Assembly (NCBI GenBank): GCA_045586345.1
Contig: JAZNAD010000047.1
Span: 1 to 53,396, forward strand
Source of the DNA: Eubacteriales bacterium
GTDB taxonomy: Bacteria; Bacillota; Clostridia; Oscillospirales; CAG-272
DNA length: 53,396 nt
Direction: 5' to 3'
This document shows positions 8,064 to 26,787 of the stretch, piece by piece. A program made the translations under genes and the position numbers. The notes under the pieces were generated by a model. The model did no database searches, was not told where the DNA came from, and was given only the letters and a program-made list of their open reading frames with translations. Within the stretch, counting starts at the first letter, position 1. Each line of letters begins with the position of its first letter.

Positions 8064-8110
8064 AAAAAATTAAAAAAGGGCACATTATCCCTTGCGAAAT
8101 AATTGCGCCC
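8064..8110 (-). terminator. intrinsic terminator forming the expression platform of the ZTP riboswitch
   Basis: Minus-strand hairpin GGGCGCAATTAT-ttcgcaaggg-ATAATGTGCCC is followed by TTTTTTAATTTTTT. Its 5' arm overlaps the conserved CUGGGC end of the aptamer. Confidence 0.7.
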
Positions 8111-8180
8111 AGACGGTCGGCCTTCGGTCACCCTGCTCCCCCGCGGTATCTCTCCGCGCATCCGTCAGTTGCAGGGGCCC
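8105..8180 (-). promoter_or_regulatory. ZTP (ZMP/ZTP-sensing, pfl motif) riboswitch aptamer
   Basis: The minus strand reads CCCUGCAACUGACGGAUGCGCGGAGAGAUACCGCGGGGGAGCAGGG-ugaccgaaggccga-CCGUCUGGGCGC. This matches the pfl-motif core ACUGGCG...CGGGGAGC...CCGCCUGGGC. The pseudoknot pair changes in a compensatory way (GACGG/CCGUC versus GGCGG/CCGCC). Confidence 0.8.
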
Positions 8181-8219
8181 GCGCGCAATGTGTACGCGCG
8201 AATTATTTAATACATATGT

Positions 8220-23404: not shown

Positions 23405-23601
23405 GGTAAGCAATAAAAAAACGCCGCTATCGGGGAATATTCTTATCGGAGAATTAAAAAAATACCACTAAGTGCGAGCATCGCATTTGACCGGTCAAAT
23501 GCATTATGGGTTAAGCCCAAAACCTTATACAAACAGAAAGAGCAAACACGCCAAGACGAAAAATCTTGTATGTCTGCTCTTTTTCTGTTGGTCTTAGTTT
23601 A

Positions 23602-23783
23602 GAGTTATGAGGCTCTCTGTGCTCGCCGTTATGAATTTGCTACGCAAATATTATGATATGGTTGCCCTCGCAGCTTAAAACTTGGCGAAGCCAATCATAA
23701 CTATGCAAGGCATATCATCACTCATAACTTGCCCGTAAGGGCAATCATAGTTTAGCGTGATTTGTCCGTTAAGGGCATCACTC
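23602..23783 (+). repeat. array of inverted 7-9-mers (GTTATGA / TCATAAC family) interleaved with short hairpins
   Basis: AGTTATGAG (23603-23611) pairs with CTCATAACT (23721-23729), GTTATGA (23628) with TCATAAC (23695), and ATGATATG (23653) with CATATCAT (23711). Hairpins lie at 23635-49, 23682-94, 23702-14, 23729-44 and 23763-77. Confidence 0.6.
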
Positions 23784-23982
23784 TATGCGGCGGTTTTTTG
23801 TAGAGAAGCCAAGGAGAGGTCACTCGTTTATTATTGGCAAGGCAGGTGCAAAATTACTATTTGCCGTGCATCGCAAAGAATGACAAAATATTTGCAACAT
23901 GCGCTAATATAATAGATCCATGTGGTTGACTTTTTTATCCTTAGGATCTCTTAATGCGACCGATACATCCATGATGCGCACA

Positions 23983-24029
23983 TTCCAAATAAAAAAATCT
24001 ATTTGGAATTTAAAAAGTTTTATTTGGAA
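23983..24029 (+). promoter_or_regulatory. operator-like repeats TTCCAAATA-N8-TATTTGGAA-N12-TATTTGGAA
   Basis: An inverted repeat plus a third direct half-site ends 5 nt upstream of the -35 of the island gene. Confidence 0.5.
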
Positions 24030-24034
24030 AAATG

Positions 24035-24063
24035 TTGACATATTTTAAAAGCTATGATAACAT
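24035..24063 (+). promoter_or_regulatory. sigma-A type promoter of the island gene
   Basis: TTGACA, 17 nt, TAACAT (preceded by TGa). RBS GAGGAG follows, then the ATG at 24098. Confidence 0.5.
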
Positions 24064-24097
24064 ATTTTTGTGATCATATTCTGTCGAGGAGAAACTA

Positions 24098-25135
24098 ATG
24101 AAGGTTATAAATCAAGAAAAAGTAAAGAACTATCTGTTGCGTTTGATAAAAAGCGGAAGAAAGGATTATGTTAAAGCGACGATCGAAGCCTTCAATATTA
24201 GCAAATCCAGTGTTTATAATTACGTTAAGCAAATGGAAACGGATGGCTTGATCGAAAAAAAAGAAAATACGTATACTCTTCGAACTAACAATTATCATTA
24301 TTTTTTCAAAAACGATGGAACATTAGGCGAGGATCGCGTATACAGTCAATTTATTTCGCAGCATATCCAATTCAAGAAAAATGTGAATTCTATATGGAAT
24401 TACGCATTTACCGAAATGATGAATAATGCCATTGAGCATTCGGAAGCAGAAAATATTTCCGTTAGCATTTATCAAAACTGCCTTGATACTGAAATACTGA
24501 TTATAGACGACGGTATTGGAATTTTCAAAAACATCCAAAGATTTATGAAAACCAGCAAAAACGAAATGATCTCTCTTCGAGAATGTGTATCGCTTTTATT
24601 TGCAGGGAAGTTCACAACTGCCAGGCAATATCATACAGGCGAAGGCATTTTCTTTACCTCTCATGTTATGGATGAATTTATTATTTACTCCGACGATAAC
24701 TTTTTCACCAGAAACAATTTTACATCTGCACAAATAGAAGATACTAATCTGCATAGCCTCATGCAAATGGAAAAAGGTACTATCGTAAGAATGACGATCA
24801 GTAACAGTACCAAAAAAGTTTTGTCTGAAGTTTTTAATACCTTTGCTCCGGTAGATGAAGGATTCATAAAAACAACTATCCCGGTGGCGCATATGTTTGC
24901 GGGCGGAAATCCCGTATCACGCTCGGAAGCAAGAAGGTTGCTGGAGTGTATAGCTCTCTTTAATGATATTGATTTGGATTTTTCGGGTGTGGAGGAAATA
25001 GGGCAGGGCTTTGCTCACGAGCTTTTTGTTCTCGGAAAACAAAAATATCCACATATAAATCTAAGAACGATCAAGACCTGCAAAACAGTTGAAAATATGA
25101 TAAAGCGTGTCATTAATACCTCGGCGCTTCAATAA
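24098..25135 (+). CDS. wHTH / GHKL (RsbW/SpoIIAB-like HATPase) / STAS-like (DUF4325-like) fusion protein
   Basis: 345 aa. The N-terminus has a wHTH (ISKSSVYNYVKQMETDGLIEK). GHKL motifs are the N-box EMMNNAIEHS, G1 IIDDGIGIF and G2 TGEGIFF. The C-terminus is STAS-like (SRSEARRLLECIALFNDIDLDFSGVEEIGQGFAHELF). Confidence 0.7.
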   Translation: MKVINQEKVKNYLLRLIKSGRKDYVKATIEAFNISKSSVYNYVKQMETDGLIEKKENTYTLRTNNYHYFFKNDGTLGEDRVYSQFISQHIQFKKNVNSIWNYAFTEMMNNAIEHSEAENISVSIYQNCLDTEILIIDDGIGIFKNIQRFMKTSKNEMISLRECVSLLFAGKFTTARQYHTGEGIFFTSHVMDEFIIYSDDNFFTRNNFTSAQIEDTNLHSLMQMEKGTIVRMTISNSTKKVLSEVFNTFAPVDEGFIKTTIPVAHMFAGGNPVSRSEARRLLECIALFNDIDLDFSGVEEIGQGFAHELFVLGKQKYPHINLRTIKTCKTVENMIKRVINTSALQ

Positions 25136-25224
25136 CGGCTCAACCTTCGCCAAGCAAGCTCCGCTCAAAATGGCACGGGTGGGGACTGTTGCCCGTCTTC
25201 CCCGACAAGAGAAGGGGAAGACGC

Positions 25225-25252
25225 AAAAAGGAGCACGGATGTGCTCCTTTTT
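25225..25252. terminator. hairpin AAAAAGGAGCAC-ggat-GTGCTCCTTTTT
   Basis: This is the third copy of the GGAGCAC/GTGCTCC stem in the window. It lies between convergent genes. Confidence 0.65.
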
Positions 25253-25424
25253 CTGTTATACCGCCGAAATCCCAAAAGGCACGGTGTGCCTTTGGCTCCT
25301 TCGCTCCACGCGGAGCTCAACTGCGCTCAGGATGACGCGGCGGCGGCGTAATTTTCCCCGTGCGGTTCCTCATGGCGGTAAAACTGAAGCTATTACGAGG
25401 ACGGACCGTCCGGGAGGGCTATTC

Positions 25425-25797: not shown

Positions 25798-26787
25798 TTA
25801 TACCTCCGTAATGCGGATAAGATGCGCGACGCCCGCGATGCTCCCGCCCTGCTGAAGACTACCGGGGTTCATCAGCGCCCCCGTGCCGACAGCCAGCATC
25901 CGCCGCACCTCGCGGCGGGCGACGCGGGGCAGAAAGACCCCCGCAAGGAGCGAGGCGATACAGCCGCAGCCCGAGGCGCCGCCGTGGATGTCCTTCTCCT
26001 TGTCGTAGAGCAGGCACCCGCCGTCCTCGTGGACACGGGAGAGGGTCGGAAGCTGCTCGGAAAGCAGGGTGTAAAGAAGCACGCTCCCTTCGCGCCCAAG
26101 GTCGCCCGTCAGGATGAGGTCGAAGTCCTCGGGAGCTTCGCCCGTCTCTCGGAAGTAGGCAAGAAGGGTATCGGCGGCGGCCGGCGCCATTGCAGCGCCC
26201 ATATTGGCGGCATCGGTGATCCCGGCATCGCAGATGCGTCCGGGGAGGAAGGCATCGACCGCCGCACTTCCCTCGCGGCCGAGGATGGCCGCCCCCGCGG
26301 CGGTGGCCGTCCATTGGGCGGTCGGGGTGCGCTGAGAGCCGTACTCAAGAGGGGTTCGGAACTGCCGCTCGGCGGCGGCGTTGTGCGAGGAGGTCACGAC
26401 CCCGACAGTTCTGAGTGAGGGGGTGGCGGCCAGCGCAAGCGAGGCGACGCCCAGCCCCTCGACCATCGTCGAGCAGGCGCCGAACAGCCCAAGGAAGGGC
26501 GCACCGAGCGAGGACAGCCCCTGCGAGGAGGCCACGCACTGGTTCTGAAGGTCGCCGGCAAAGAGCAGATTGAGGTCATCTGGGGGAAGATCGGCCTTCC
26601 CGAGCGCGAAGGAGAGCGCCATGCGCGCCATCTCGCCCTCGGCCAGCTCGAAGGACTCCATCCCGAAGCGGTCGTCCTCGGCGCAGAAATCGAAGGCCTC
26701 GCCATACGGGCCGCGCCTCTCCTCGTAGCCGCCGACGGCGCTCGAGGCGCGGACATAGGCCGGGGGGAGTGTGAGAAGTCGGCTCAT
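25798..26787 (-). CDS. spoVAD: stage V sporulation protein AD (thiolase-like fold)
   Basis: Start trimmed to MSRLLTLPPAY, whose ATG overlaps the spoVAC stop (ATGA), with GGAGG upstream. Confidence 0.88.
   Translation of the reverse strand: MSRLLTLPPAYVRASSAVGGYEERRGPYGEAFDFCAEDDRFGMESFELAEGEMARMALSFALGKADLPPDDLNLLFAGDLQNQCVASSQGLSSLGAPFLGLFGACSTMVEGLGVASLALAATPSLRTVGVVTSSHNAAAERQFRTPLEYGSQRTPTAQWTATAAGAAILGREGSAAVDAFLPGRICDAGITDAANMGAAMAPAAADTLLAYFRETGEAPEDFDLILTGDLGREGSVLLYTLLSEQLPTLSRVHEDGGCLLYDKEKDIHGGASGCGCIASLLAGVFLPRVARREVRRMLAVGTGALMNPGSLQQGGSIAGVAHLIRITEV

Follow-up and report, generated by a model that had tools for sequence, protein, structure and literature searches.

A diverged Gut-1 (RF01706) array in a small MITE-like element inserted into a terminator loop in gut Clostridia

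The DNA analyzed here, referred to as the window, is a 53,396-nt stretch of contig JAZNAD010000047.1 (GenBank assembly GCA_045586345.1) from a Eubacteriales bacterium of the Clostridia (CAG-272). It carries a single copy of a 353-nt noncoding element, which splits a bidirectional intrinsic terminator between a PPIase gene and the spoVA operon. The next gene downstream (24098-25135) encodes a protein with winged-helix, GHKL-ATPase, and STAS-like (DUF4325) parts, and has more than 3000 homologues. A preliminary description, made from the letters alone, had reported a dense array of inverted repeats and small hairpins at 23602-23783, in DNA without open reading frames. The array is real, and the absence of any open reading frame of at least 60 aa across 23405-24097 was confirmed. 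The unit to which the array belongs is larger, comprising an element at 23431-23783 within a terminator split across 23415-23799 (Table 1).

TABLE 1 Features of the element and of the host terminator that it interrupts (window positions)
Feature	Position	Strand	Remark
Host terminator 5' half-stem with A-tract (AAAAAAA CGCCGC)	23415..23427	+	Complementary to 23787-23799; uninterrupted in L126
Left TSD copy, TAT, 3 bp	23428..23430	.	Similar A/T-rich 3-mers flank other family members
Inserted element, MITE-like, 353 nt, no ORF of at least 60 aa	23431..23783	+	Homologues of 344-418 nt; empty site in L126
Left terminal inverted repeat GGGGAATATTCTTATCGGAG	23432..23451	+	Degenerate relative to family consensus GsGTGATrTyCTTArCGGAG
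Conserved 5' module	23432..23536	+	78-92% identity across the family
Perfect 20-bp palindrome GCATTTGACCGGTCAAATGC	23483-23502		In the 5' module; unique in the window
Internal hairpin resembling an intrinsic terminator, between an A-tract and CTCTTTTTCTGTT	23531..23592	+	Position kept in all family members
Left arm, k-mers AGTTATGAG, CGTTATGA, ATTATGATATG	23602..23675	+	Gut-1 orientation on the + strand
Central hairpin TTGGC-GAA-GCCAA	23682..23694	+	Every array has a hairpin here; its apex is usually C-GAA-G
Right arm, k-mers TCATAACT, ATCATCAC, TCATAACT, ATCATAGTT	23695..23752	-	Gut-1 orientation on the - strand
Long-range inverted repeat bracketing the right arm, TATGGTTGCCCT with partner AGGGCAATCATA	23657..23668; partner 23738-23749	+ (first copy)	
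3' hairpin GCGTGAT..CCGTTAAGG..ATCAC	23755..23783	+	Right terminal inverted repeat (23764-23783) made up of its 3' arm and loop
Right TSD copy, TAT	23784..23786	.	
Host terminator 3' half-stem with T-tract (GCGGCGG TTTTTT)	23787..23799	+	Pairs with 23415-23427; compare L126

All of the repeats listed in the preliminary description were found. The inverted pairs are AGTTATGAG (23603-11) with CTCATAACT (23721-29; 9 of 9 positions pairing), GTTATGA (23628-34) with TCATAAC (23695-701), and ATGATATG (23653-60) with CATATCAT (23711-18); the extra heptamer variants were located as reported, and the five small hairpins were present, the last of which (TGTCC/GGGCA) includes a T.G pair. Repeat density was compared with 1000 dinucleotide-preserving shuffles of 23602-23783 and lay beyond chance, with 12 inverted 7-mer pairs (expected, 1.15 ± 1.36; 0/1000 shuffles reached 12) and 4 hairpins with a stem of at least 5 bp (expected, 0.52; 2/1000 shuffles). 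Enrichment was modest for 4-bp hairpins (55/1000) and for the best 7-mer plus its complement (62/1000). Segment 23590-23805 folded better than shuffles on both strands (z = -2.3 on the + strand and -2.9 on the - strand). A chance origin of the repeats in AT-rich, low-complexity intergenic DNA might draw on the two of four shuffle measures that are only marginal, but it is refuted by the inverted 7-mer count and by the recurrence of the same architecture in more than 15 independent loci; we consider its probability negligible.

The preliminary description had also proposed that the array is a cis-regulatory leader of the downstream gene, or a binding array for its winged-helix product. Region 23405-24097 was compared with 80 loci encoding homologues of that protein. 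Upstream of the gene, loci L001, L002, L013, and L116 share only the promoter-proximal segment 23982-24097 with the window. At L116, which encodes a 90% identical homologue (P0002), the window's 23982-25162 is shared at 83% DNA identity, and the gene lies beside tRNA genes in a different neighborhood without an array. On that comparison, the wHTH-ATPase gene and its promoter are a separate AT-rich module, which adjoins the array by happenstance. The leader or operator reading can point to the proximity of array and gene in the window and to L009, in which a 51% identical homologue lies about 0.9 kb from an element; at L009, however, gene and element have the opposite relative orientation and are separated by another gene. 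Moreover, homologues of 81-90% identity share about 115 nt upstream without the array, the gene occurs on none of the contigs (most of them short) of the approximately 15 relatives found by pattern search, and it has its own set of repeats (ATTTGGAA, three copies) beside its promoter. These comparisons already refute this reading, and we regard it as very improbable.

The nature of the larger unit became evident from syntenic loci, which were reached via homologues of the window PPIase. In the window, the junctions read AAAAAAA-CGCCGC-TAT-(353 nt)-TAT-GCGGCGG-TTTTTT. Locus L126, whose PPIase is 92% identical, has an intact terminator between the same two genes and represents the empty site: the PPIase stop codon is followed by AAAAGAAAAC-CGCCGC-ATT-GCGGCGG-GTTTTTATAG and then by the end of spoVAE, in an intergenic region of 30 nt. 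Without the 353 nt and one TAT, the window sequence matches the L126 terminator almost base for base. The window element is thus a MITE-like, nonautonomous insertion in the apical loop of a bidirectional intrinsic terminator. The preliminary description had offered the relic end of a mobile element as a third reading, which was the closest of its proposals; the element is complete, though small, with two ends, a target site duplication, and an empty site, and is not a relic end.

Other members of the family are placed similarly. Their flanking half-stems are locus specific in sequence and length and complementary within each locus (CGCCGC/GCGGCG, GGACACC/GGTGTCC, GGCGCGGAG/CTCCGCGCC, and ATATCCCCCCGT/ACGGGGGGATAT), and, as is characteristic of bidirectional terminators, an A-tract precedes them and a T-tract usually follows. 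A clear flanking stem is missing in two of the seven complete elements (L095 and L101). Short A/T-rich direct repeats can be read where six of the seven meet their flanks (TAT, ATT, AAA, AAA, ATTA, and TAA), those of L085 being unclear. The terminal inverted repeats of the seven elements are complementary at 15-22 of 24 positions; the best are those of L085 (22/24, with a perfect 19-bp run), and those of the window (15/24) are the most degenerate in the family. At most loci with both flanks readable, the element lies between convergent genes, directly past a stop codon. Identity between element bodies is 85-93% for L087/L095, L084/L085, and L082/L101 and 78-84% for the window and L096, with flanks at background similarity. 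A single subfamily can be found at unrelated flanks within single metagenomes; the evidence for dispersal is metagenomic.

That hairpin loops are genuine insertion targets in these genomes follows from two further insertions. An IS3-family insertion sequence (IS) lies in a hairpin loop with a TAT duplication at L127, and a related copy occupies the loop of an element's own internal terminator at L103. IS1397-type elements, which belong to the IS3 family, give duplications of 3-4 bp. The ends of the IS3-family IS differ from those of the element; a resemblance between the left ends of the two (TGAT..CTTAG..TTGAAAA) was rejected, the other end of the IS having failed to match. No autonomous partner (a transposase gene with matching ends) was found among the loci compared or in scans of viral contigs, phages, and plasmids.

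The first relative found was L009, which has a window-like layout with a different heptamer. When metagenomes were scanned for a conserved 19-mer located in the left part of the element, 34 loci were returned, of which approximately 15 were true relatives. Homologous elements of 344-418 nt were found at L009, L082/L108, L084, L085, L095, and L101. The approximately 15 relatives keep one order of parts, given here on the window + strand. An A-tract and GC-rich half-stem are followed by an end of about 20 nt (GsGTGATrTyCTTArCGGAG), by a sequence-conserved module of about 105 nt with the palindrome GCATTTGACnGGTCAAAyGC, and by a strong terminator-like hairpin and CTCTTTTTCTGTT. Then come three to five direct copies of a 7-9-mer, mostly with short GC-rich hairpins between them, a central hairpin, and two to four reverse-complement copies of the k-mer, again with hairpins between. 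The hairpin GCGTGAT..CCGTTAAGG..ATCACGC, the complementary half-stem, and usually a T-tract complete the unit. Despite its sequence conservation, the 5' module showed almost no consensus RNA structure (RNAalifold). In the window, the internal terminator hairpin has a predicted free energy of -20.3 kcal/mol (z = -4.2). The 3' hairpin is alignable across the family but has two folding registers, and pair counts there would mislead.

Within each arm of the window element, the k-mers are spaced by small hairpins: one nonhairpin spacer and the hairpins ATTTGC-tac-GCAAAT and GGTTGC-cctc-GCAGCT in the left arm, and TATGC-aag-GCATA and TGCCC-gtaa-GGGCA in the right. The crossing helices noted in the preliminary description exist; they reflect the presence of several interchangeable k-mer copies in each arm and nothing more. 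The long-range helix that brackets the right arm is wholly different in sequence yet still complementary in L009, L082, L084, and L095. The k-mer is uniform within an element and differs between subfamilies, with the two arms changing together: GTTATGA in the window and L096, GTGATAT in L009 and L107, ATGAAAT in L082 and L101, TCGATAT in L084 and L085, GTGAAGT in L087 and L095, and GTGATGT in L104. Its spacing is irregular (16-26 nt), which does not agree with phased protein-binding sites on B-form DNA. In L083, L096, L107, and L110, the array is lost or shortened, with the left module and terminator kept, and other insertions lie in the internal terminator loop of L103 and L105. A solitary arm was observed directly 3' of a stop codon in L101.

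Several other identities were considered for the array. Mini-ORFs, suggested by ATG and TGA within the window k-mer, were rejected, since the k-mers of other subfamilies lack start or stop codons. Integron attC core sites (GTTRRRY/RYYYAAC), a lambda-type attP with arm sites, and iterons or omega-protein heptads were each dropped because the k-mer varies by subfamily, its spacing is irregular, and no matching gene lies nearby. BLAST searches with the element found nothing similar in collections of phages and plasmids, the only matches from pattern scans of viral contigs fell in coding DNA and were attributable to chance, and an exact look-up of the window's own proteins found no record.

The preliminary description could not name an RNA family for the array, which is a diverged relative of Gut-1 (Rfam RF01706), a catalogued candidate RNA motif. 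The Rfam search that it had suggested was run on 801 nt of the window and gave no match at the gathering score or at E ≤ 10; the family surfaced only through better-preserved relatives. When 170 nt of the window were scanned, Gut-1 scored 12.1 bits at 23707-23753 on the - strand, below its gathering score of 50 bits. On the strand opposite the window + strand, the right arms of L082, L101, L095, and L009 scored 53.8, 53.4, 50.8, and 46.1 bits, respectively, three of the homologues thus lying at or above the gathering score. The left arms matched on the + strand (40.4 bits in L009, 35.8 in L082, and 26.4 in L095). These opposite-strand matches show that each element carries two inverted copies of one Gut-1 module. 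The elements that match Gut-1 share the 5' module, internal terminator, central hairpin, and 3' hairpin of the window.

The right arm of the window has the Gut-1 architecture of at least three short hairpins between copies of one heptamer, reading on the - strand as k-mer, TGCCC-ttac-GGGCA, k-mer, ATGC-ctt-GCAT, k-mer, TGGC-ttc-GCCA, k-mer. Divergence of the window copy consists of a changed heptamer and one linker with an extra variant k-mer. A family-specific covariance model of the arms was dropped, because the units vary in length and MAFFT could not bring them into register.

The 2010 description of Gut-1 drew on human gut metagenomes, judged the motif to be an RNA by covariation (rated "RNA: Y"), and listed it as not cis-regulatory, with neither an organism nor a function (Weinberg et al. 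2010; PMC2864571). The supplement records it in gut sequences only, and the text of the paper is silent on a second arm and on mobility (PMC2864571). In that description, at least three short GC-rich hairpins, with a repeated heptamer between them, occur only in gut Clostridia-type metagenomes (PMC2864571). The consensus heptamer is GUGAAAU or GUGAUAU, whereas that of the window is GTTATGA. The model is a single 77-nt arm, presented as an orphan sRNA (PMC2864571); the element, in contrast, has two inverted arms within an inverted-repeat-bounded insertion in a terminator loop, together with an extra conserved 5' module. In the flanks of the 2010 alignment, an inverted second arm, upstream terminators, convergent stop codons, and flanking inverted repeats are visible, and at least five near-identical two-armed copies with differing flanks come from one gut metagenome. 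No later paper mentioning Gut-1 was found in the literature searched.

Stems and loops bear on whether the array acts as DNA or RNA. The preliminary description called the hairpins covarying; stems that differ within one array are not covariation, but between homologous elements true covariation was found (for example, TTTGC/GCAAA versus TTCGC/GCGAA). Across 11 arrays, 267 Watson-Crick pairs and a single G.T pair were counted in the predicted stems between k-mers. Loops of the right arm on the + strand are mostly of the form G..A (GCA, GAA, GTA, GCAA, GTAA, and GTCA), and those of the left arm tend toward the complements (TGC, TTC, TAC, TTGC, and TGAC). The same mirror pattern is seen in the 2010 Gut-1 sequences, and it indicates that both arms are the same module, inverted. 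In each arm, the GNA or GNRA loops thus fall on the strand that reads outward from the center. No conserved promoter was seen on either strand, and the arrays lie directly downstream of a terminator. Mismatches in the terminal repeats, read on the + strand, comprise 22 G.T and 4 A.C, although only three to five positions are independent; this bias hints at pairing at the RNA level or of the top strand.

We propose that an insertion into a terminator loop is probably tolerable because of the internal terminator and because the element can fold back through its end inverted repeats, through pairing of k-mers between the two arms, and through the long-range helix. The two arms would be paired end modules that act when single stranded: on the outward-reading strand, each palindrome would form a hairpin with a GNA or GNRA loop and a k-mer next to it. 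The k-mer beside the hairpin may be the specificity site for a protein encoded by the element or a partner, presumably the transposase of an autonomous relative. If one cognate protein recognized the k-mer, the joint change of every copy in both arms would be accounted for. Taken as a whole, this account of a MITE-like terminator-loop element that carries a diverged Gut-1 pair, is tolerated at its target, and presents hairpin and k-mer specificity sites on single strands is on balance probable. We advance more tentatively, as a possibility that falls short of even chances, that Gut-1 in general is the paired end module of a new terminator-loop-targeting mobile family of gut Clostridia, whose hairpins display the subfamily k-mer on single strands to a cognate recombinase or transposase, and is not a free-standing sRNA. 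If so, a recognition code would be drifting in step across six to nine copies. DDE transposases bind double-stranded DNA, and known mechanisms leave a requirement for hairpins unexplained.

The main competing explanation holds that Gut-1 is a structured ncRNA, and the element a mobile ncRNA gene or 3'-untranslated-region module, in which the transcript would fold into rows of hairpins whose single-stranded k-mer linkers either pair between arms, building a multiway-junction ladder, or titrate a partner that binds RNA. Consistent with it are the three homologues that reach or exceed the Gut-1 gathering score, the covariation of stems between homologues, the frequency of GNRA-type loops, folding better than shuffles on both strands, the pairing of left with right k-mers in minimum-free-energy folds of several arrays, the lean of terminal-repeat mismatches toward G.U on the + strand, and the 2010 authors' own rating. 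A single G.U in 268 stem pairs, however, would be unusual under selection on one RNA strand, and the mirror symmetry of the loops means that no single transcript has favorable loops in both arms. Further, the array begins just past a terminator with a conserved promoter on neither strand, and some + strand A.C mismatches are G.U on the - strand, and vice versa, so that neither strand is consistently favored. We judge the ncRNA explanation rather unlikely. Less probable again is that the element is a REP/BIME-like extragenic repeat that benefits the host as a terminator, a barrier to 3' exonucleases, or a set of nucleoid or topoisomerase binding sites. Its position between convergent genes directly past a stop codon at most loci with both flanks readable would suit such a role, as would the strong internal terminator, palindromes compatible with both strands, and the solitary arm right behind a stop codon in L101. 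Against it, REP units are constant per genome, whereas in these arrays the constant part is the linker and no two hairpins are alike; the empty site at L126 has a terminator working without the element; and truncated and array-less derivatives exist (L083, L096, L107, and L110). Host benefit therefore seems improbable.

The preferred reading, a mobile element, has parallels among known systems. In Tn7, Mu, Tn5053, and the eukaryotic foldback and CACTA elements, copies of an element-specific motif are direct at one end and inverted at the other, and subterminal motifs of transposons coevolve with the cognate transposase, resembling the k-mer arms described here. Those motifs are, unlike the element's, double-stranded sites of 12-22 bp without hairpins between them, and the bacterial examples make 5-bp duplications. 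The left arm lies about 170 nt from the left end of the element and is not strictly subterminal in this family. Bacterial MITEs and modular repeats (Correia, BOX, RUP, and ERIC) are likewise small, noncoding, intergenic, bounded by inverted repeats, and highly self-complementary, with a modular build, variable numbers of internal units, target site duplications, and empty and filled sites (PMC3184786). The element differs from them in that its internal units are not one sequence, the stems varying while a short linker is constant and subfamily specific, and in its target, the tip of a terminator hairpin; it is not known to have a partner IS. Insertion at the apex of an extragenic palindrome is shared with IS1397, ISKpn1, and ISPpu9/10 (PMC1525189, PMC8450116), but these are autonomous and transposase bearing, with ends unlike those of the element.

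REP/BIME repeats and REPINs with RAYT have alternating or inverted palindromes at gene 3' ends and a short conserved motif beside the hairpin that is recognized on single-stranded DNA (PMC2817692, PMC3333891). REP hairpins, however, are sequence conserved per genome and lack a subfamily k-mer array; the stems of the element all differ within and between arrays, and the one conserved palindrome that characterizes REP/BIME was not found. No RAYT gene was seen here. The ToxI antitoxin of type III toxin-antitoxin systems also forms a short repeated noncoding array upstream of a gene in a defense-like island, but its units are direct 36-nt tandem repeats, with a terminator and the toxin gene after them. 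That identity was rejected, the arms of the element being inverted, its units nonidentical, and the neighboring gene unlinked.

To our knowledge, and in the literature searched, the two-armed layout, the boundaries set by inverted repeats and target site duplications, the terminator-loop target with its empty site, and the subfamily k-mers are new. Such arrays can adjoin defense-like islands without belonging to them, which should be borne in mind in annotation. Gut-1 has stood in Rfam since 2010 as an orphan motif without organism, context, or function and can now be placed in metagenome-assembled genomes of Clostridia. It is not a new kind of molecule; rather, an orphan Rfam family is recast as a testable mobile-element problem, raising the questions of which enzyme moves the element and whether hairpin and k-mer are read on single strands.

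Judged by sequence comparison, the stretch between the PPIase gene and the spoVA operon is a hotspot for insertions. Window 23405-25424 was compared with loci L118, L119, L120, L124, L126, and L259; in L126 the gap is a bare 30-nt terminator, L118 and L259 each carry an HTH_26 gene there (with an additional 66-aa ORF in L118), L119 and L120 have a glycosyltransferase, and L124 is rearranged.

Hairpin apices were occupied by an IS3-family IS, consisting of OrfA (two HTH domains) followed by OrfB with an rve domain, in L127 and in L103 (a gut-metagenome locus with an element of the same family), with a TAT duplication. One copy of this IS, which is very abundant across metagenomes that carry Gut-1 elements, occupies the loop of a Gut-1 element's internal terminator. 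In L105, another member of the element family, the internal terminator loop holds a palindromic 50-nt mini-insert (TGTGTGATATGCACC...GGTGCATATCACA).

A partial element copy and a solitary Gut-1 arm were also found. In L029, a right-end hairpin and first array unit lie directly 5′ of a short rubrerythrin-like ORF, whose ATG is inside the k-mer of the array unit. The lone one-arm Gut-1 in L101 scores 44 bits and has degenerate k-mers; it is located 5 nt 3′ of a stop codon, with a complete, two-armed element ~3.3 kb away on the same contig.

Only one of the left-arm spacers is not a hairpin (..GTGCTCGCC..); it is complementary to GTGCGAGCA, an invariant segment in the 5′ module, and a spacer with GCTCG occurs at the equivalent left-arm position in four loci with related elements (L084, L085, L095, and L104). 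This complementarity could reflect a long-range contact or the remnant of a duplication.

Other RNA calls in the window were a ZMP/ZTP riboswitch (48 bits; gathering score, 39) and a 97-nt tRNA-Asn (ARAGORN; anticodon att) within the spoVAD coding region, the latter probably a false positive.

Locations of features in the window and in related loci
Feature	Sequence	Position	Strand
ZMP/ZTP riboswitch	window	8100-8182	-
Invariant segment of 5′ module	window	23469-23480	
Left-arm spacer	window	23620-23631	
wHTH-HATPase-DUF4325 module	window	23800-25162	
ATTTGGAA/TTCCAAAT repeats	window	23983-24029	
Promoter, TTGACA-17-TAACAT	window	24035-24063	
tRNA-Asn call	window	26278-26374	+
Right-end hairpin plus first array unit	L029	6474-6432	-
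One-arm Gut-1 copy	L101	3650-3719	+
IS3-family IS	L127	2432-4033	
IS3-family IS	L103 (element orientation)	~1090-1708	
Palindromic mini-insert	L105 (element orientation)	~1236-1285	

The window also carries an AT-rich (34% GC) single-gene module whose product combines winged-helix, GHKL ATPase, and STAS-like (DUF4325) domains; this protein has >3000 homologues and gave only weak scores, limited to CARF/Csa3 wHTH models. In relatives, the module is found at unrelated sites, adjoining tRNA genes in L116, for example. Three copies (one direct and two inverted) of the ATTTGGAA/TTCCAAAT repeats lie just 5′ of the gene's promoter and, by sequence comparison, are kept in L116 as well, 5′ of a 90%-identical homologue. 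These repeats, rather than the Gut-1-type array, are the likelier candidate operator for the wHTH-HATPase-DUF4325 protein.
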